64,000 nucleotides of DNA. It comes from Vicinamibacterales bacterium. GTDB taxonomy: Bacteria > Acidobacteriota > Vicinamibacteria > Vicinamibacterales > JAMQPK01. The stretch's first letter is position 1; the number at the start of each line of letters is the position of its first letter. Location of the stretch: NCBI GenBank assembly GCA_035281225.1, contig DATEEI010000097.1:16496-80495 (forward strand). The letters are read 5' to 3'. The notes under the pieces are model-generated. The model ran no database searches. It was not told where the DNA came from and saw only the letters and a list, made by a program, of their open reading frames with translations. Made by a program: the position numbers and the translations under genes. Positions 28,723 through 58,999 of this stretch are shown piece after piece.

Positions 28723-28781
28723 GGTCCGGCTAAAGCCGGACACTACGAACATGGGTCCGGCTAAAGCCGGACACTACGAAC
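28723..28781. repeat. tandem 31-bp-period duplication of the pilS 3' end (28-bp unit ggtccggctaaagccggacactacgaac x2), each copy holding a hairpin
   Basis: Identical units at 28723-28750 and 28754-28781. On the minus strand each reads GTTCGTAGTGTCCGGCTTTAGCCGGACC (VRSVRL-stop) with stem GTCCGGC/GCCGGAC and loop TTTA. The pilS stop codon TAG spans the loop's last two nucleotides (TA) and the first G of the 3' stem arm. Confidence 0.9.
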
Positions 28782-39211: not shown

Positions 39212-40434
39212 ACAAGTACCTCGACGCGGCGGGCATCGCTCTCAGCGCGATCTGGTCGGCCAAGCTCCGGTCGCTGATGACCGTGCTCGGCAACATCGTC
39301 GCGGTCACGTCGATCATCGCGGTCGTGTCCCTGATCCAGGGGCTGAATGCCTCGGTCAAGCAGGCGATTCTGAACGAAGCGGGCGCCGATTCGTTTATCG
39401 TTCAGCAGTTTGGAATCGTCCGAAGCGATGACGAGTGGCTTCGTGTGCAGTCGAATCCGCGCATCACGCGGCAAGACGCGATCGCCGTGAAGCGGTTCAG
39501 CCCGCTCGTCTCGGCGGTGATGCTGAGCTCTCAAGGTCGCGCGCGTGTGACCTATCGCGACGCGTCGATCGACCGCGTCGAGATCACAGGCGTCACGCCG
39601 GAGTACGTGAATTTCTCCAGCTACGATGCCGAGCGCGGCCGGCTCATCAGCCCGACGGAGGTCGATGTCGCCCGTCCGGTCACGGTGATTGGTGCGCAGC
39701 TGGCGGAACGCCTGTTCGGCCTGGACATCGACCCTGTCGACAAGACGATCCAGATCCAAGGCATCCATTTCCGCGTCATCGGCGTCAGCGCGAAGCGCGG
39801 AACCGTGCTGGGCACGACGCAGGATGAGTTCGCGATTATTCCGCTCGCTCAGTTTCAGCAGATGTTCGGCGCGCGCAGGCAGTTGTCGATGTCGGTCAAA
39901 CCACGCGAGTTCGGCGAGATCAATGCCGCCATCGACGACACCACGCTCGCACTCAGAATCGCGCGCCGCCTGAAACCGAGCCAGCCGGACAACTTCGCGA
40001 TTTTCAGCTCGGACACGGTCCTCGGCCTCTATCAGACCGCCACAAGCGGGATTTTCGCAGTGCTGATCGGAGTTGTGGCGTTGTCGCTCGTGGTCGGCGG
40101 CATCGTCATCATGAATATCATGCTGATGGTCGTCACCGAGCGCACGCGCGAGATTGGCCTCCGCAAGGCCCTCGGCGCACGACGATCCGACATCACGACG
40201 CAGATTCTGACGGAGTCGGTCGTCCTGTCGGTATTTGGCGGCTTCGTCGGGACCGTTCTCGGAGCGATCATCGCGATCACGATCTCAAAGCTGACGCCGA
40301 TCCCGGCCTCGGTTCAGCTCTGGTCGGTCGGGCTCGGCATCGGCATCACCGCCTTCGTTGGTCTGTTTTTCGGACTGTATCCCGCGACGCGCGCCGCCCG
40401 GCTGGATCCGATTGAGGCCATGCGACGCGAATGA
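39208..40434 (+). CDS. MacB-type ABC transporter permease (FtsX domain)
   Basis: 408 aa. TM1, a large periplasmic domain, then the FtsX core with ERTREIGLRKALGA. Confidence 0.88.
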   Translation: MNKYLDAAGIALSAIWSAKLRSLMTVLGNIVAVTSIIAVVSLIQGLNASVKQAILNEAGADSFIVQQFGIVRSDDEWLRVQSNPRITRQDAIAVKRFSPLVSAVMLSSQGRARVTYRDASIDRVEITGVTPEYVNFSSYDAERGRLISPTEVDVARPVTVIGAQLAERLFGLDIDPVDKTIQIQGIHFRVIGVSAKRGTVLGTTQDEFAIIPLAQFQQMFGARRQLSMSVKPREFGEINAAIDDTTLALRIARRLKPSQPDNFAIFSSDTVLGLYQTATSGIFAVLIGVVALSLVVGGIVIMNIMLMVVTERTREIGLRKALGARRSDITTQILTESVVLSVFGGFVGTVLGAIIAITISKLTPIPASVQLWSVGLGIGITAFVGLFFGLYPATRAARLDPIEAMRRE

Positions 40435-41741
40435 AAACCCCGAGAATCCGCTACGGCCTTCTCCGCGAAGTCATCGTCATGGCCTTCGATACCGTCCGCA
40501 CGAACAAGCTGCGATCGGGGCTGACGGTGCTTGGCGTCGTGATCGGGATTACGTCGATCGTCGCCATGACGGCTCTTATCCGCGGCTTCGATACGTCGCT
40601 CCAGGAGAGCCTCAGCACGGCGATGGGTCCTCGCGCGATATTCGTCCAACGATTCGGCATCCTCAGCTTCGCCAGTGGCCGGGAGTTCTCCGAAGTCATC
40701 AAGCGGCCGACGCTGACGATGGGCGATGCGCGTGCATTGGAAGAGCAGGCGACCACGCTGGAGATCGTGGACATCCAGATCGGCCGCGGACCTGGCCAAA
40801 CCATCAGTCGGCGCGTCTCGTACAGGGATCAGAAAACCCGGCCCATGTTTGTCTTCGGCTCTGGCGAGCGGTATGCCGAAGGCACCCGCATTCCGATGAC
40901 GGCCGGCCGATTCTTCAGTGGAATCGAGGTCCAGCATCGCAGCAATGTCGCCGTCATCGGACACGGCGTCTACCAGCTGCTATTCCAGGAGAGAGGTATC
41001 GATCCTGTTGGGAAGACCGTGCGTATCGGCAGCGATCAGTTCACCGTCGTTGGCGTCTTCGGCTCGGTCCCGTCGCCGGGCAATTTCACCGTCAACCAGG
41101 ACGACTTCGTCGTCATGCCGCACACGACATTTCAGCGTGTGTACGGAGTGAGCATCGTTCAATCGTTCCGCGGACGACTGGGAATGCCCGTGATGATTTC
41201 GGTAGCGCCACGAGAGGGAGTCAGCCAGGCCGCCGCGGTCGACGAGATCGAGCGCATCATGCGCACGCGCCACGGCCTCCGACTGGACGAGCCCAACGAC
41301 TTCGATATCGTCACGCACGATGCCCTCATGCGCGTGTGGGATCAGATCAGCCGTGCGACGTTCTTTGCACTCGTCGTCATCTCGTCTATTGCCTTGATGG
41401 TTGGCGGCATCGGCGTGATGGCGATCATGTCCATCTCGGTGACCGAGCGAACGCGCGAGATCGGCGTTCGTCGGGCGCTCGGCGCGCGCAAGCGTGAAGT
41501 GCTGTTTCAGTTTCTCACCGAAGCCGTCTTCCTGACATCCGTAGGCGGGCTGCTCGGTATCGTCCTGGGCAGCGCCATCGGACTCGCAGTGCATTTCTTC
41601 ACGGGCTTCCCTGTCTCTCTTCCCATGTGGTCGTTCGCGCTCGGCCTCGGCTTTTCTGCGACCGTCGGGATCGCGTTCGGCATGTATCCCGCAATCCGCG
41701 CCGCCCGGCTGGATCCCATTGAAGCGTTGAGGTACGAATAG
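40431..41741 (+). CDS. MacB-type ABC transporter permease (FtsX domain), second copy
   Basis: 436 aa with the same architecture and ERTREIGVRRALGA. 4-bp overlap with the upstream permease. Confidence 0.88.
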   Translation: MKTPRIRYGLLREVIVMAFDTVRTNKLRSGLTVLGVVIGITSIVAMTALIRGFDTSLQESLSTAMGPRAIFVQRFGILSFASGREFSEVIKRPTLTMGDARALEEQATTLEIVDIQIGRGPGQTISRRVSYRDQKTRPMFVFGSGERYAEGTRIPMTAGRFFSGIEVQHRSNVAVIGHGVYQLLFQERGIDPVGKTVRIGSDQFTVVGVFGSVPSPGNFTVNQDDFVVMPHTTFQRVYGVSIVQSFRGRLGMPVMISVAPREGVSQAAAVDEIERIMRTRHGLRLDEPNDFDIVTHDALMRVWDQISRATFFALVVISSIALMVGGIGVMAIMSISVTERTREIGVRRALGARKREVLFQFLTEAVFLTSVGGLLGIVLGSAIGLAVHFFTGFPVSLPMWSFALGLGFSATVGIAFGMYPAIRAARLDPIEALRYE

Positions 41742-41744
41742 ACT

Positions 41745-41772
41745 CAGCTGCCAGCTACCAGCTGCGAGCTTG
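41745..41772. repeat. heptad array cagctgc cagctac cagctgc gagcttg (left flank of the four-helix-bundle gene)
   Basis: Read directly. Begins 4 nt after the permease stop. Reverse complement of the array at 42224-42251. Confidence 0.8.
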
Positions 41773-41841
41773 CAGAGCGTCACGGCCCGAAAACTGCACC
41801 TCAGACTAGCCAGAATCGCTAGATATTCAGGAGGCTCTGCG

Positions 41842-42213
41842 ATGCAGGACTTCAAGAAGCTTGTGGTGTGGCACAAATCTCACAACCTGGTCTTGGACGT
41901 GTACGCAAAAACCGCAAGCTTTCCGAAGGCGGAGATGTTCGGCATCACCGCTCAGGTGCGACGCGCTTCGGTGTCGATCGCGGCGAACATCGCCGAGGGC
42001 AGCTCAACTGGGAGCGACAAGGAGTTTGCGCGCTTTCTGCGAGTCTCAGCCGCGTCTGCCAGCGAGGTCGAATATTTTTCGATCCTCGTCGTGGACCTCG
42101 GACTATTGGATGTGCGAGCGGCCGACCGATGGGGACGAGATGTATCTGAAATCAGACGAATGATCTTCGGACTATTAGGCACCTTCTCAAAGCCAAAGTC
42201 GCATCCGCCCTGA
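41842..42213 (+). CDS. four-helix-bundle protein (23S rRNA intervening-sequence / S23-like family)
   Basis: ATG 41842 is preceded by AGGAGG. 123 aa, MQDFKKLVVWHKSHNLVLDVYAKTASFPKAEMFGITAQVRRASVSIAANIAEGS..EVEY, which is typical of this family. Confidence 0.85.
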   Translation: MQDFKKLVVWHKSHNLVLDVYAKTASFPKAEMFGITAQVRRASVSIAANIAEGSSTGSDKEFARFLRVSAASASEVEYFSILVVDLGLLDVRAADRWGRDVSEIRRMIFGLLGTFSKPKSHPP

Positions 42214-42223
42214 ACCAAACCGG

Positions 42224-42251
42224 CAGCTGGCCACTGGTAGCTGGTAGCTGT
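42224..42251. repeat. heptad array cagctgg ccactgg tagctgg tagctgt (right flank, inverted relative to 41745-41772)
   Basis: Read directly. Ends at the sigma-factor stop codon (42252). Confidence 0.8.
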
Positions 42252-42890
42252 CTAGTTCCTCTTCGCCGCCAGGTCCGTGGTCAGCCGCTTGACCGCGCGG
42301 TTCACGGCCATTCTGGCGGCGTCGACGGTGCGCAGTCCAAACCGGTGGGCGATCTCTGCAAGGCTCCACTGCACTTCGATGCGGCCGACGACCAGCTCGC
42401 GGTCTTTCGGCGAGAGGCGAGACAGCCCGTCACGATAGTGCTCGTAGGCCTCTTCCTGAATGGCAAACTCGAGCGGAGATGTCCGGTCTGACGGATGATC
42501 GTCAGGCAGCTCGAGCGGCGGTGGCTGGCGGACGATGCGCCGCACTTCGTCACGGATCCGGTTGATCACCGATTGGCGCAGATAGGCCTGCATGGCCCCG
42601 ACGTGCCGCGGCTCGAACGTGTCGAGGTTGTTGATGGCGTGCATTGCCGCCTCCTGAACCAGATCGCCCGTGTCCATACGGCCGCGCGCCGCTGCGGGGA
42701 GGCGGCCATGAGCCCATCGCTTGAGCGGTGGCAGGCAGCGCTCGAGCAGGGCTTCCATCGCCGGCCGGTCTCCACCGCGTGCACGCACGATCAGCTCCAT
42801 GGTCGGCTCATCGCTCAGCAGGAGCTGGGGCGCAGGCTCATTCTCCGCAGGATACTCAGGCTTCGTCATCGCGTGTTCGAGCAGGATCAT
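42252..42890 (-). CDS. ECF-type RNA polymerase sigma factor (ECF43-like, kinase-associated)
   Basis: Sigma2 region ..LKRWAHGRLPAAARGRMDTGDLVQEAAMHA.. and sigma4 ..WSLAEIAHRFGLRTVDAARMAVNRAVKRL. Start placed at the MILLEH.. ATG (42890). The longer track ORF (to 42962) would overlap the divergent kinase gene. Confidence 0.82.
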   Translation of the reverse strand: MILLEHAMTKPEYPAENEPAPQLLLSDEPTMELIVRARGGDRPAMEALLERCLPPLKRWAHGRLPAAARGRMDTGDLVQEAAMHAINNLDTFEPRHVGAMQAYLRQSVINRIRDEVRRIVRQPPPLELPDDHPSDRTSPLEFAIQEEAYEHYRDGLSRLSPKDRELVVGRIEVQWSLAEIAHRFGLRTVDAARMAVNRAVKRLTTDLAAKRN

Positions 42891-42949
42891 AGCTTCTCCG
42901 GTCAGAAACTCGGTATCGAGTATTCTTCCGAGCTGGTGGCCGGTAGCTG

Positions 42950-43861
42950 GTGGCTGAATCAATGATTGGGCAAACCGTTTCGCATTACATAATCGTAGGT
43001 AAGCTTGGGGTCGGCGGCATGGGGGTCGTTTACGATGCCGAGGATCAGCACCTCCCCCGCAGGGTTGCCCTGAAATTCCTGTCCGAGGAGCTCGCCGGGG
43101 ACGCCGACGCGACGCGACGCCTGAAGCGAGAGGCGCAGATCATCGCGCTCCTGAACCATCCGCACATCTGCACGGTGTACGAAATCGCGGAGCACGAAGG
43201 CCGTGCCTTCATCGCGATGGAGCGTCTTGACGGCAGGACCCTCAAGGCGCACATGGCGCGCAAGGAGCTCGAAACGGCGGAGATTCTCGGGATCGCGCTT
43301 CAGATTGCCCAGGCGCTCGAAGCGGCGCACGCCAAGGGCATCGTCCATCGCGATATCAAGCCTGGAAACATTTTTGTCGATGAAGGCGGGCGCGTGAAGG
43401 TGCTGGACTTCGGCTTGGCCCGGCGTCTTCCAAACCCTGCAGAACACAGCGTCGCGACACCGACCGACGGATCGACGATACCGGGCCGGCCGGTTGGAAC
43501 CGCGAGCTACATGGCGCCCGAGCGGATTCTGCAGTTGCCGCTCGACCCGCGCTGCGATCTCTTTTCGCTCGGCGTTGTGATCTACGAGATGGCCACGGGG
43601 AGGCTCCCGTTCGCGGGCGCCTCCCCTGCCGAAACCGTGACCAACATCCTCGAACGGGAACCGATCCCTGCGACGCAGCTTTCACCGGACCGGCCGGGAC
43701 AGCTTGACCGTATCGTGACCAAGCTCGTCGCCAAGCGCGCGGAGGACCGGTACGAGTCGGCCGGTGCCCTGCGCACCGATTTAGAGGCGCTTCGGAATCG
43801 GTCGAGCCTTCCGCTGATTAAACGTGTGCTTGGCAGGTGGTTCGCTACCAGTCGACCCTGA
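42950..43861 (+). CDS. Ser/Thr protein kinase, soluble kinase-domain-only
   Basis: 303 aa. [43 protein letters not shown]. Start is GTG 42950 or ATG 42962. Confidence 0.9.
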
Positions 43862-44273: not shown

Positions 44274-47200
44274 TCATTCGACCAACGGCCGAATTGTCGC
44301 TCTCGAAACGAAGCGGCTTCGGTACTGCTCGGAAAGCGAACTTCGAATCTGCGCAATGAGCTTCGTGGCAGAGGAACGTTCGGTGGCAGCCGCGATCGTT
44401 TCTCCTCGCCGCGCGAGCGCCAATCCGCGCCAATAGTGCGCTTGCGCGTTCAACTCAGGCCCGACCGTCACGCTCCCGAGCTCTAACGTGCGGAGGACTT
44501 TGGCATATTGCCGCTCCTGAAACTCCTTCCGCGCCCGTTGGAGCGCGCACTCGGCCCGCACGTGAGCCTTATGGAAGGATCTCAACGCTGCTGACTCCAC
44601 ACCAAGATAACATTGAGCTACCAACGTGGCGGCGCCAGGTACATCTCTCACGGCTGACGCGACCGCGTGCTGAAAATGCGTTCGTGCGGCGTCGGGTGAT
44701 CCGGACTCCAAAGAGAGCTCACCGAATGATTCGTACAGCTGCGGCGCAAGCCTCATTGCTCCGGTCGACTCGACCTGCGCCAGCGCCTGTTCGAGATGCT
44801 GCTTCGCACCGTCAAAGTCTCCCAGACGAACGAGCACACGGCCCAACGTGATGTGCACCTCAGGGACGCTGCTGTCAGAGGCCAGTGCGTCCACGAGAAT
44901 CGTGCGAGCGCCCTCGTAGTCGCTCTGCAGAACCGCGACGTCCGCCGTAGTAACTCTGAGCAACGTCAGCCGGTTCTTCAGGTCACGTTCCGTCGCTATG
45001 CTCGTCGCCTTCTGCAGAATTCGCCGCGCCTCAGCTAGACGGCCTGAAGCCGCTTCGCTCTCACCCTGAACCTGCATCGCAAAGACCTCAAAATCCGCGT
45101 AGCCCAGCTTGCGGAACGTGGCGAGCGCATTCGTGAGACGATGTGTGACCTCGGCGGGATCGAGCCCGAGCACAATCTGCAAATTCACCGCAGTCACTTC
45201 AAGCTCCGCAGCGCGGCGCTCGTTGCCTATCTGTCGGTAGACATCCCGGCTGCGCTCGTAATACGCGACCGCCTCGGAAGTGCGACCCATCGCTTCCTGA
45301 GCAACGCCGAGATTCATCAAGGCGACTCCCTCCAGACGTCGGTTTCCCACCTGCACGCCGCGGGAGAGAGCCTCCTGAAATGACTGCGCTGCCGCCGGGT
45401 AATTGGGTTCCCGAGCGGCTGCCAATCCAAGGTACTGATGGATCCGGGCAAGCCCATACGGGTAACCGAGCGATCTAAAGATCTCGTGCGCTGTCTCTAT
45501 TTCCGCTCTTCCTGCCTTCAAATTGCGCTGTTGGAGAAGTGCGTCAGCGTGACACAGTAGCGCTTGCGCTTCGCCCCCCCGATTGCCGGAAGTACGAAAA
45601 GCCCTCAGCGCGATTTGTGCGTGTCGCTCCGAGAGCGGATAGTCATCGAGAAAGGCGTATAGCTGACAAAGATCGACGTGCACACGTCGGTATTCAGGAT
45701 CGACCGCAAGCACGCGATGGTACGCTTCGACGGCAGGCTCGTTCCGGTTTTGTCTCTTAAGAAAATCAGCAAGTTCAATTTGCAGAGAGGGATCGTCGGT
45801 ATGGAGGCCACTCAACTCGCGGTAGAAGTGCTCCGCGCTTGTGAGATTGTTCTGGCTCTCCGCAAGAACGGCAGCGGCAAGGACAGCGCTGGATCTCGGC
45901 GTGTGGGCGCCAACGAGCTGGGATCCCGCTCTCGCCGCAGCCTCCGCGCCTTTCAGATCGCCCAATAGAAGTGACGTCTTGCTCAGCCATATGTAACTGA
46001 GAACGCGTTGCCCATCCAGCTCAACCGCGCGCATGAACGCGGCACGCGCGGTGCCATACTCCAGCTGTTCGTAGGCGTTCGAGCCCTCCTCGAACGCTCG
46101 AGCGGCCTCAAGCGTCGGGAAGCGCGCGGCTTCCGCGTTGGTCGTCGGTGGCCGATGCGGCCAATTGAGCTTGAACTGCGCCTGAATCCGCGAGGCCAGC
46201 GCCACCATCAATCGCTGAGCCGTCTCTTGGGGCAACGCCGAGGTGATGGAGTCGGTTCGGACGGTGGCGATATTTGTTCCGGTCTCCACATTCCGTACCT
46301 CCGCTTCCGCAACCCACGCTCCGTCGCGGTACTCGAGCGCTGGAACGATCAGAAATCTCACCCTGGCATCGCGGGCGATGGCTTGAATCGCATCCCGGCC
46401 TGATATGTCGCCGGCGCCGAGCAGATATCCGCGAAGAGCCTCAAGCAGACGCGAGTAAGTGGTAACACGCAGATTTGGCGAGTCCCGGAGTTCCCCGATC
46501 AACGATTGAGTCAGGGTCAACCGATACGCATCCAGAGCGCGCTCACCCGTATGATTCGCCACCGGCACGATAGCGATCGGCGTGCGGGGCAATGGCCTGG
46601 CGAGCCAGAGATAACCAGCGGCTGCACCGATGGCGAGCACGGTCGCTGCCACCACCACCGCCATCGTTCGCGAGCCACGCCGTATTCTTCCCTCTGCCCT
46701 CTCCCCTCTCCCCTCTCCCCTCTTCCCTCTTCCCTCTTCCCTCTGCCCTCTTCCCTCTTCCCTCTGCCCTCCCCCCTCCACCAGCACCGCTTCCGTCCGC
46801 ATGTCGAGCGGCATGCTGCGCCCTTGCAGGTGCCGCAACGCGCGGCAGAGGTCTCTGGCGTTCTGATACCGCTCGGCCGGATCCTTGGCGAGCGCGCGCC
46901 GGACGATCGGCACGATACCTTCAGGGAGGTCCGGCACCGTATCATCGAGCGGCGCAGGCTCCTCATTCTTGATAGCGTAGAACACCGCTTCCGGATAGGA
47001 CCCCTTGAACGGGCCGCCGCCCGTCAGCATTTCGTAGAGCACGACGCCGAGCGCCCAGATATCGCTGCGCTCGTCGGCTTCCTCGCCCCGCGCCTGCTCC
47101 GGCGACATGTACGCGACCGTACCGATCGTCGATCCTTCGAGCGTCAGCTTGAGCGCCGCGTCTGCAAGCTTCGCGAGCCCGAAGTCCAGAATCTTCACGC

Positions 47201-52250: not shown

Positions 52251-52285
52251 TCTCAGCTTCCAGCTGCCAGCTCTCAGCTGCCAGT
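52251..52285. repeat. heptad array tctcagc ttccagc tgccagc tctcagc tgccagt (rpsK-rpsD spacer)
   Basis: Read directly; 5 units with a 7-bp period. Confidence 0.85.
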
Positions 52286-52294
52286 GGAATTTAG

Positions 52295-52738
52295 TTATAC
52301 GCGTCGCCTCTTCGGCGGCCGGCAGCCATTGTGCGGAATCGGCGTGACGTCGCGAATCGACTTCACCTCAATGCCGATCGTCTGCAGCGCCCTGATCGCC
52401 GACTCGCGGCCTGAACCCGGGCCCTTCACGCGCACTTCAACCGAGCGCAGCCCCACCGTCTTCGCAACGTTGCCGGCAGCAATCGCGGCCTGGGTCGCGG
52501 CGAACGGCGTGCCCTTCCGCGAGCCCTTGAAGCCGACGCCGCCCGCGCTCGACCAGGCAATCACGTTCCCTTCGATGTCGGTGATCGTGATCATCGTGTT
52601 GTTGAACGACGCGTGGATGTGCGCGTAGCCGGTGTGCACGATCCGCTTCTCGCCACGCTTCTTGAACGTCTTGCGTGGCTTCTTCGCGCCCTTTTCGCCT
52701 TTTTCCGGTGCGGCGCCTTCTGCGTCAGTCTTGGCCAT
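52295..52738 (-). CDS. rpsK: 30S ribosomal protein S11
   Basis: ..[45 protein letters not shown].. 147 aa with a K/E-rich N-terminal extension. Confidence 0.96.
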
Positions 52739-52753
52739 CTGTTTCTTCGCTCC

Positions 52754-52830
52754 TAGCTACCAGCTACGAGCCACCAGCTACCAGCAGGTTCCAGCGAAAA
52801 CTGGAAGCTGGCAGCTGAAAGCTGGCAGCT
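52754..52830. repeat. heptad arrays tagctac cagctac gagccac cagctac cagcagg, then the inverted ctggaag ctggcag ctgaaag ctggcag (rpsM-rpsK spacer)
   Basis: Read directly. Central perfect hairpin ttccag-cgaaaa-ctggaa at 52789-52806. Confidence 0.85.
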
Positions 52831-58445: not shown

Positions 58446-58473
58446 TTCAGCTCTCAGCTACCGGCTCAACAGT
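58446..58473. repeat. heptad array ttcagct ctcagct accggct caacagt (rpsH-rplF spacer)
   Basis: Read directly; 4 units. Confidence 0.75.
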
Positions 58474-58892
58474 TACCAAATATTGCACAGCACTTCGCCG
58501 CCGACGCCGGCGCGCATGGCGGCGCGGCCGGTCATCACGCCGCGCGACGTGGTCAAAATGCTCGTGCCGAGGCCGCCAAGCACCGGCGGCACGTCGGTGC
58601 TGCGGAAGTACACGCGGCGCCCGGGCCGGCTAATGCGCTCGAGGCCTGTGATGACCTTTTCGCCGTGCGGCCCATATTTCAGAAAGATGCGGACCATCTG
58701 GCGCGGCGCGACGGCTTTGGCCGCCTCAGGCGATTTCTCGTCGACGAGCTTGAAGCCCTGGATGTACCCCTCGTCCTCGAGAATGCGCGCAATCTCCACC
58801 TTGAGCTTCGAGGCGGGGACGTCCACTCGGGAATGCTTGGCGATGACGGCATTCCGGAGGCGCGTGAGCATATCGGCAATCGGGTCTGTCAT
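58473..58892 (-). CDS. rpsH: 30S ribosomal protein S8
   Basis: MTDPIADMLTRLRNAVIAKHSRVDVPASK.., 139 aa. Confidence 0.96.
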   Translation of the reverse strand: MTDPIADMLTRLRNAVIAKHSRVDVPASKLKVEIARILEDEGYIQGFKLVDEKSPEAAKAVAPRQMVRIFLKYGPHGEKVITGLERISRPGRRVYFRSTDVPPVLGGLGTSILTTSRGVMTGRAAMRAGVGGEVLCNIW

Positions 58893-58925
58893 GTGTTGGT
58901 TCTCTACTCGTTCACTGTTTCTGTT

Positions 58926-58999
58926 CCAGCCGGTAGCTTGTAGCTCGTAGCCTGTAGCGAGCCTTTCCTACCGCCTACCAGCTACCACCTACCAACTAC
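58926..58999. repeat. heptad arrays gtagctt gtagctc gtagcct gtagcga, then the inverted ctaccgc ctaccag ctaccac ctaccaa (rpsN-rpsH spacer)
   Basis: Read directly. About 11 units in strict 7-bp register; GTAGC and CTACC(GCTAC)-type halves face each other. Confidence 0.85.

Follow-up and report, generated by a model that had tools for sequence, protein, structure and literature searches.

A PF05635 gene enclosed by inverted heptanucleotide arrays in a Vicinamibacterales genome: a probable intervening-sequence-type cassette outside ribosomal RNA

To our knowledge, the small S23p proteins encoded by intervening sequences (IVS) of bacterial 23S rRNA have been known since 1993 and are represented by two crystal structures, and we know of no answer as to their function. 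In Leptospira, the IVS that carry an open reading frame (ORF), reportedly described by Ralph and McClelland in 1993, are said to measure 485-759 nt. Tandem arrays of seven-base units are another familiar feature of bacterial genomes, and the cyanobacterial short tandemly repeated repetitive (STRR) sequences were described around 1990. In Coxiella burnetii, whose IVS is 428 nt long, tandem GACAGAT heptads lie in the 5' arm ahead of the S23p ORF and RNase III cuts at the first repeat; IVS of the Coxiella type are regarded as selfish, with an ORF that is decaying in some strains (Warrier et al., 2016; PMC4990558). The heptamers of Xanthomonas and Nostoc have been described as unexplained and often convergent, and an excess of heptanucleotides has been noted (PMC4692102; Rehm et al., 2015); further heptanucleotide repeats are TAACTGA in Beggiatoaceae (PMC4679880) and the paired sites of Geobacter metallireducens (PMC2700814). 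Here we analyse a 507-bp segment (positions 41745-42251) of a 64,000-nt stretch of DNA, the window, from a Vicinamibacterales bacterium (Acidobacteriota; assembly GCA_035281225.1, contig DATEEI010000097.1), in which a gene of the S23p family, PF05635 or TIGR02436, is enclosed by inverted heptad arrays. Two puzzles meet in this locus, namely the purpose of the S23p/IVS proteins and the reason why some bacteria carry hundreds of 7-base tandem repeats.

We consider it fairly probable that the segment is an IVS-type cassette, a single gene in a hairpin, that lies outside rRNA and forms one system with the heptad arrays of the genome. A more ambitious proposal, which we put forward tentatively and at less than even confidence, is that PF05635 proteins are the trans-acting partners of heptanucleotide arrays, much as REP-associated tyrosine transposases (RAYTs) are for REPINs, the hairpin-forming pairs of repetitive extragenic palindromic (REP) sequences; 23S IVS, cyanobacterial STRR and the GGGAATC repeats of Xanthomonas would then be one previously unrecognised system. 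The locus shows the heptad hairpin to be the normal home of the gene, and comparisons of genomes show arrays that follow the gene and share its units; the rRNA intervening sequences would be one landing place of a much wider class of cassette. For annotators, the consequence is that small PF05635 genes and their arms may break operons and assemblies. What is added here is an allelic series, a presence/absence test in two phyla, a unit-matching test, the polarity and the mismatch spectrum of the arms, and an estimate of selection.

A PF05635 gene within a heptad hairpin

Read directly, the left array is CAGCTGC CAGCTAC CAGCTGC (41745-41765) and the right array CAGCTGG CCACTGG TAGCTGG TAGCTG (42224-42250), and the left is identical to the reverse complement of the right at 16 of the first 18 positions, as the original prediction had described; its picture of a small discrete cassette bounded by inverted heptad arrays is supported. 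Tandem Repeats Finder (TRF) assigns a period of 7 to both. In a repeat search the arms pair over 26 nt (41745-41770 with 42225-42250) with 85% complementarity, 454 nt apart, and they also pair in alternative registers offset by whole heptads (7 nt). The only ORF that they enclose is 41842-42213 on the plus strand, which has its own ribosome-binding site, AGGAGG, 8 nt ahead of the ATG. The coordinates likewise agree with the predicted position of the segment between the stop of a MacB-type permease gene (41741), after which the left arm starts 4 nt later, and that of a sigma factor gene of the extracytoplasmic function (ECF) type (42252), 1 nt from the end of the right arm. The parts of the locus are as follows.

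41739-41741, plus strand: stop codon TAG of the MacB/FtsX-type permease gene (gene 40431-41741; PF12704 MacB_PCD, E 7e-36; PF02687 FtsX, E 1e-21)
41745-41770, no strand: left arm, CAGCTGC CAGCTAC CAGCTGC GAGCT (TRF period 7, 3.7 copies), which pairs with the right arm in the minimum free energy (MFE) and centroid folds
41771-41841, plus strand: leader from the left arm to the start codon, with the Shine-Dalgarno sequence AGGAGG at 41829-41834
41842-42213, plus strand: PF05635 four-helix-bundle gene, 123 aa (23S rRNA intervening-sequence protein, S23p, Avd-like; profile E 5e-32)
42224-42250, no strand: right arm, the reverse complement of the left arm, found by reading, TRF, repeat search and fold
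42252-42254, minus strand: stop codon of the convergent ECF-type sigma factor gene (42252-42962; Sigma70_r2, E 2e-8)

When the RNA of 41735-42262 is folded, the pairing of left and right arm closes the cassette in both the MFE and the centroid structures, with a dG of -213 kcal/mol compared to -187 +/- 5.9 kcal/mol for shuffled sequences (z -4.5). No rRNA or tRNA was found in the 64-kb window, and neither a sigma-70-type promoter nor an intrinsic terminator is predicted inside the cassette.

The encoded protein matches PF05635 (23S_rRNA_IVP) over profile positions 1-105 of 106 with an E-value of 5e-32 and 110.6 bits (cut-off 33.8), which is its sole Pfam match, and it carries the family motif RRASVSIAANIAEG. 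The published motif GxxRxxxSxxxNxxE (PMC3936711) is present in the translation as ITAQVRRASVSIAANIAEG, in agreement with the alignment of the paralogs. The closest solved relatives, PDB 2gsc (XCC0516; E 3e-14) and 2rld, have five chains in each entry, and Xcc0516 is described as five four-helix bundles (Lin et al., cited in PMC3936711). The cassette protein is probably of the pentamer-forming, nucleic-acid-binding four-helix-bundle type, from the family to which S23p and the Avd protein of diversity-generating retroelements (DGR) belong. Among family orthologs where it could be measured, the ratio of nonsynonymous to synonymous substitution rates (dN/dS) is 0.03-0.14, with dS above 1, indicating that the protein is functional and under purifying selection.

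The genome from which the window comes (4.19 Mb in 139 contigs, 62% G+C, 100% complete by markers) contains 193 period-7 arrays under a strict rule, whereas none of the other periods between 4 and 12 exceeds 13; a lax rule gives about 516, in roughly a dozen unit families. There are ten PF05635 matches in this genome, and inverted heptad arrays stand on both sides of seven of them according to the detector and of nine by eye. The same detector finds same-unit inverted arrays around 0.076% of random 315-bp windows (binomial P about 2e-20), and chance is excluded as an explanation of the arrays at PF05635 genes. Random windows were used here in place of a genome-wide census of wrapped genes, which relied on GC3-based gene calling and was dropped as unreliable. 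The paralogs are 16-45% identical to each other, and their units are GGTAGCT, CAGCTRC, GGGCTCT, CAGTCGG, GGGTTCT, GTCCAGA, GATCGGC, AATCTAG and AGTAAGA; no arrays flank the remaining copy, the tenth, which is truncated. A search with Rfam found no rRNA near the nine loci other than that of the window. Same-unit inverted pairs are bimodal in the gap between them: 58 pairs are less than 200 nt apart and make plain hairpins, no pair falls at 200-300 nt, and those at 300-600 nt form a second group that consists mostly of PF05635 genes. Outside the window, same-unit inverted heptads also wrap ordinary genes encoding Hsp20, Ku, a PspC-like membrane protein and a cupredoxin-like protein (G000:C109:18613-19055, C118:9586-10609, C25:65193-65909 and C97:6573-7147), so heptad wrapping is not exclusive to PF05635. 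For four of the ten PF05635 genes, the end of the contig is no more than 2.5 kb away (G000 contigs C116, C112, C31 and C43), which suggests that cassettes or arrays may break short-read assemblies and that copies may be missing from draft genomes.

The same build recurs far beyond this genome. In an order-level survey of 87 PF05635 loci, from five genomes of the genus and eight other families of the order, about half have same-unit inverted heptads on both sides by a strict detector and further members have an array on one side. A cross-phylum sample of 120 loci was drawn from a species-level genome collection with the back-translated motif RRAxxS[IV]xxNIAEG, and all 80 of the 80 loci tested are PF05635 members. 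The 300-nt flanks of the 120 loci contain 117 period-7 arrays, compared to 1-14 for periods 5, 6, 8, 9 and 10; array density falls 13-fold, from 6.6 per 10 kb within 400 nt of the gene to 0.51 further off, and the inverted repeat between upstream and downstream flank exceeds the 99th percentile of cross-locus controls at 66 of 105 loci (63%). Strict same-unit inverted heptads were found at 27 loci in at least 13 phyla, with cases in Bacteroidota, Verrucomicrobiota, Elusimicrobiota, Chloroflexota, Actinomycetota, Bacillota, Alpha- and Gammaproteobacteria, Cyanobacteriota, Gemmatimonadota, Calditrichota, Dormiibacterota, Patescibacteria and Acidobacteriota. The arms of a Pseudoxanthomonas cassette are GGGAATG/ATTCCCC and those of a cyanobacterial one GGGACTG/AGTCCCC (loci L178 and L207), which match or closely resemble the published heptamers of Xanthomonas and Nostoc (GGGAATG compared to GGGAATC; PMC4692102). 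Probes for 23S rRNA matched none of about 340 loci. In the survey of other family copies for flanking arrays that the original prediction had suggested, a gene in a heptad hairpin is the typical build of PF05635 in this genome, its genus, its order and at least 13 phyla.

Descent at the MacB-sigma site and the link to gene-less arrays

Fifteen loci of the genus with MacB on the far side, collected through orthologs of the sigma gene, make it possible to follow the cassette at a single site. In all relatives except G018, a heptad array directly follows the MacB stop. The gene is intact or nearly intact, between complementary arms of 23-32 paired nt, in this genome (unit CAGCTRC), in G004 (AGCTRTC), in G015 (TCAGTTY) and in G020, G005, G008 and G006 (CCGTTTG). 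It is decayed or 5'-truncated, with the complementary arms kept, in G016, G021 and G014, and it is missing, with a single array or none, in G010, G011, G001, G009, G002 and G018. The number of paired arm positions is 19-32 in all gene-bearing and decayed loci and at background level in all gene-less ones. The syntenic comparison proposed in the original prediction found filled, decayed and empty states of this site, which supports that prediction; on the other side stand the empty sites, which keep one array at most, not two. The array that G010 and G011 have after MacB, without a gene, corresponds to the arms of a PF05635 gene elsewhere in the same genome. In the decayed cassette of G014 (L026) the unit of the left arm is CCGTTTG and that of the right arm AACTGAC, a mismatch that looks as if two cassette lineages had recombined. 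The relatives also have an extra minus-strand gene of about 130 aa with a signal peptide between cassette and sigma gene, as well as a GC-rich terminator hairpin (L015-L028, L037, L038); this small gene is present in two tandem copies in G001 and is missing from the genome of the window.

Compared to the copies in this genome, MacB is 80-93% identical among the relatives, the sigma factor 72-83% and the cassette protein 44-63%. A tree built from 72 acidobacterial PF05635 proteins places those of the site in one group (support 88), which also contains two copies from a different family of the order. One of these two has a TCAGTTT-type unit, and clades of the tree generally have related units. 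A single group in the tree and the stepwise drift of the units speak for vertical descent with loss and not for repeated insertion, and we read this as a cassette that is an old resident of the genus, diverging fast in place and sometimes lost. Replacement by foreign copies was considered for the low identity of the protein relative to its flanks (44-63% vs 72-93%) and set aside, in-place fast divergence being likelier given that the proteins of the site group together and that the units drift stepwise. Neutral sites are saturated between the species (dS above 1), yet the arrays are regular and the two arms switch unit together; this joint change could be due either to selection for pairing or to template switching between inverted repeats.

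The unit family of the arms is not confined to the cassette. The heptad pattern CCAGCTR occurs 23 times in the window, with 1.2 occurrences expected, including sites at 52253-52280, 52753-52825, 58446-58466, 58927-58998 and 42937-42957, and the following gene-less arrays belong to this family.

42930-42957, no strand: TAGCTGG-type array in the divergent spacer between the sigma and kinase genes
52253-52825, no strand: arrays in the S4-S11 and S11-S13 spacers (52253-52280 and 52753-52787, with an inverted partner at 52805-52825; TRF, pattern search)
58446-58998, no strand: arrays in the L6-S8 spacer and the spacer after S8 (58446-58466, 58927-58947 and 58971-58998)

The original prediction had assigned those near 52251, 52754 and 58446 to ribosomal spacers. 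The sites themselves stand, and their units co-vary between genomes; the spacers, however, are those of ribosomal-protein genes (S4, S11, S13, L6, S8 and others). As separate observations on the window, twelve TCTTCCC heptads at 46686-46771 lie within a gene for a 1099-aa Ser/Thr kinase and code for a GEGRG-rich linker, and TRF reports a perfect 31-bp tandem duplication, GGTCCGGCTAAAGCCGGACACTACGAACATG, in 1.9 copies at 28723-28781, with a small palindrome inside.

In each genome compared, the unit in the ribosomal spacers is that of the orthologous cassette of the same genome: CAGCTRC here, AGCTRTC in G004, CCGTTTG in G020 and an AGTTTTC-type unit in G036. For exact units, gene-less arrays match the arms of cassettes at 0.42 within genomes vs 0.04 between genomes (permutation P <5e-5), and near zero between genomes of six different families. 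This genome has 53 gene-less hairpins with the units and the polarity of the cassettes. For a comparison between genomes we used a standard sample, the roughly 20 kb that surround rplN, and none of these stretches contains a PF05635 gene. Thirty Acidobacteriota genomes without the gene (28 families) had no period-7 array in 555 kb, compared to 65 arrays in 559 kb, spread over 15 genomes, for thirty with at least three copies (16 families; Fisher 6e-6); arrays of other periods, counted as a control, numbered 8 vs 17, which is no comparable difference. Within the order, arrays and gene are correlated across 15 families (Spearman 0.64), and among Cyanobacteria arrays were found in 2 of 20 genomes without the gene vs 16 of 20 with it (P 1.7e-5). 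Genomes that lack the gene seldom have arrays, but those with the gene often have none nearby, and this asymmetry suggests that the gene is the prerequisite. These sequence comparisons tie the gene and the gene-less arrays into what appears to be one system.

Many of the same observations could also be read as the traces of a mobile DNA cassette, whose arms would be terminal inverted repeats or recombination sites and whose non-autonomous or footprint derivatives would be the gene-less hairpins. It would move as DNA, through recognition of hairpins or cruciforms, for instance, or through homologous exchange with same-unit arrays. We regard this as possible, though unlikely. In its favour, the cassette is present, decayed or absent at one syntenic site, and the family occupies many unrelated intergenic sites, often starting from the stop codon of a neighbour, and is also found within cas operons (PMC3936711) and 23S rRNA (PMC4990558). 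The 53 gene-less hairpins of this genome with the same units and polarity, the near-confinement of arrays to gene-bearing genomes, with units that match within a genome, and the strand symmetry of the arms without RNA wobble bias also point in this direction. However, there is no target-site duplication here or at other loci and no direct repeat at the outer borders, domains of a recombinase, transposase or nuclease are absent from the cassette and a reverse transcriptase from the genome, and the low identity of the paralogs excludes recent copying. The vertical descent of the proteins of the site, the empty sites with a single array and no clean joint, and the hairpin loops, which are not conserved, are equally hard to accommodate. 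The loops of the 53 hairpins are so unlike that the hairpins are not copies of one progenitor, and we rejected an origin of the kind known from transposable elements of the miniature inverted-repeat type (MITEs) on this ground. The idea in the original prediction that the arrays mark insertion boundaries or recombination sites found no support: the locus has neither target-site duplication nor recombinase nor near-identical copies, and the tree points to vertical descent with loss.

A proposed mechanism and the evidence on either side

If the segment is an IVS-type cassette, its position provides a simple route to a stem. The gene lies directly 3' of the MacB operon, so read-through transcripts should hold both arms, and MacB read-through as well as antisense transcripts from the sigma gene would fold the arms into a long double-stranded stem. 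RNase III, whose gene (rnc) is encoded in the genome, may cut this stem by analogy with the IVS of Coxiella and Leptospira, and the insert would leave the host transcript with little harm between genes. Cutting of the stem and removal of the insert would account for the tolerance of these cassettes within operons, cas loci (PMC3936711) and rRNA. The protein itself would act on heptad-repeat nucleic acid, and the arms of the cassettes may be the source of the dispersed heptad arrays of the genome or may be kept uniform with them. If PF05635 proteins are indeed partners of the arrays, each cassette would bear arms of its own unit, and its putative pentameric nucleic-acid binder would recognise or stabilise heptad DNA or RNA and seed, spread or homogenise arrays of that unit in spacers genome-wide. 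The original prediction was right to see a cassette; for the way in which the arms work we infer a mechanism to which excision of the stem by RNase III is the nearest tested analogy.

Expression of the gene has its own features in much of the family. A sigma-54-type -24/-12 motif, YGGCAYG-N4-KTGCM, stands at a constant spacing of 10-14 nt before the ATG in 42 of the 87 acidobacterial copies (among them L003-L008, G000:C32 upstream of 8120 and G000:C25 upstream of 96286) and is absent from the window copy. A Shine-Dalgarno sequence is missing from the copies with this motif, and this suggests that sigma-54 promoters give rise to near-leaderless mRNAs. In the MQDF..KL subfamily, to which the window copy belongs, a Shine-Dalgarno sequence takes the place of the sigma-54 motif.

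Several observations weigh against a cassette that is excised from RNA and makes one system with the arrays. A sigma-54-type promoter between left arm and ATG, as in about half of the acidobacterial copies, would yield an mRNA of the gene's own without the left arm. Arm mismatches that are compatible with G.U pairing in the sense strand are not in excess (81 vs 93; 135 vs 151) and most mismatches are transversions, so there is no sign of selection on a sense-RNA stem; the properties of the arms are all strand-symmetric, and a process at the DNA level fits them equally well. On the side of the arrays, half of the gene-rich Acidobacteriota have none near rplN, and arrays are present in 3 of 58 gene-less genomes, from which PF05635 is absent even at an E-value of 0.01, the clearest exception being a cyanobacterium of 5.3 Mb (G201; L374) with twelve period-7 arrays in the 20 kb at rplN. 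The link between gene and arrays appears as an association among related genomes, not as the outcome of an experiment, and the 120 loci of the cross-phylum sample, being drawn by a motif, favour canonical members and may over-represent armed genes. The strict logic of REP and RAYT, one unit family per gene, found no support in this genome when nine arrays were drawn at random (P 0.56), and the loops of its 53 gene-less hairpins have neither a common sequence nor a sigma-54 motif.

The polarity of the arms bears on a further alternative. Whichever strand is read, 20 of the 23 cassettes compared across phyla have a G-rich 5' arm and a C-rich 3' arm (P 5e-4; L120-L239), and in the gene-less hairpins of this genome the 5' arm is the G-rich one in 34 of 48 (vs 14), so that transcripts leaving the loop are C-rich in both directions. 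It speaks for a reading in which the arms are transcriptional or regulatory devices and not signals for excision. They might insulate the convergent MacB and sigma genes from each other, or terminate transcription, in both directions, acting through C-rich outward RNA that loads Rho, through a quadruplex of the G-rich 5' arm or through binding to the arrays of a regulator that controls the small gene. In line with such a role, the cassette fills a convergent gap in which no intrinsic terminator is predicted, and a classical GC-rich hairpin stands there in relatives that lack it; quadruplexes of G-rich heptads are known in vitro (PMC4692102), and the paired heptanucleotide sites of Geobacter have been read as regulator sites (PMC2700814). 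The units, however, vary by locus and species, which a single sequence-specific regulator cannot serve, and the unit of the window, CAGCTRC, is nearly palindromic and not G-rich. A regulatory role also leaves unexplained why both arms have the same unit and why PF05635 genes are enclosed about 1000 times as often as random windows, and we think it improbable.

That a small gene merely happens to lie between arrays in a heptad-rich genome (about 190-520 period-7 arrays depending on the threshold), as the wrapped Hsp20, Ku, PspC-like and cupredoxin genes might suggest, is refuted by the counts (0.076% of random windows vs 7-9 of the 10 PF05635 genes), by the same build in phyla with few arrays elsewhere and by arms whose complementarity is kept wherever a relative has the gene and that are missing wherever it has not, and hardly deserves any credence. 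Equally negligible is the notion that the gene encodes the Avd accessory protein of a DGR: Avd is of the same Pfam family (PMC10053308 lists PF05635), but the whole genome has no RVT_1 reverse transcriptase, for which reason a DGR at this locus was rejected, and the neighbours are the MacB permease, the sigma factor and a kinase, without a template/variable repeat pair.

Relation to described repeat and cassette systems

The cassette differs from insertion sequences and MITEs in that here there is no target-site duplication, no transposase domain and no near-identical copies. The Avd protein of Bordetella phage (bAvd) shares the Pfam family and, to judge by 2gsc and 2rld, presumably the pentameric four-helix-bundle architecture, whereas reverse transcriptase, template/variable repeats and target gene all have no counterpart here.

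The likeness to REP/REPIN sequences and their RAYTs lies in dispersed hairpin-forming repeats, in a single-copy gene flanked by inverted repeats and in genome-specific families of units. A further common trait is the dependence of the repeats on the presence of the gene, which is seen here as an association with three exceptions in 58 genomes. RAYTs, however, are HUH Y1 transposases with a known cleavage chemistry, whereas PF05635 proteins are helical bundles of 120 aa with no known catalytic site, and the repeats here are tandem arrays of variable length and not fixed palindromes, with no support for one gene per repeat family.

With the heptanucleotide arrays, namely cyanobacterial STRR, the GGGAATC/GGGGAYT repeats of Xanthomonas and Nostoc (PMC4692102) and those of Beggiatoaceae and Geobacter, the locus shares the placement of period-7 arrays in spacers, where many form convergent pairs, one array on each strand and the G-rich strand leading, and the intergenic period-7 arrays of this genome are far above those of other periods. 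The difference is that the arrays here enclose a PF05635 gene and track its presence across genomes. Our text searches of PMC4692102, PMC4679880 and PMC2700814 found no mention of PF05635, S23p or a four-helix-bundle gene, and in the literature searched for PF05635 with flanking heptad arrays we found no paper beyond that on the Coxiella IVS.

Among the closest known systems are the 23S rRNA IVS of Leptospira and Coxiella burnetii (PMC4990558), with which the cassette shares the protein family, S23p being PF05635, and the size class. In both, terminal inverted repeats make a long stem (here 26 nt, 85%, z -4.5) and the gene occupies its loop. The cassette differs from these IVS, which sit in helix 25 or 45 of a 23S rRNA gene, in that it lies between protein-coding genes, with no rRNA in the window or at the nine other loci, and in that its arms are pure heptad arrays whose unit varies by locus and recurs in many gene-less spacers. 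Its protein is under purifying selection, and processing by RNase III is proposed here by analogy. Since it does not lie in rRNA, the cassette of the window is not a 23S IVS, though it is built like one that bears an ORF.

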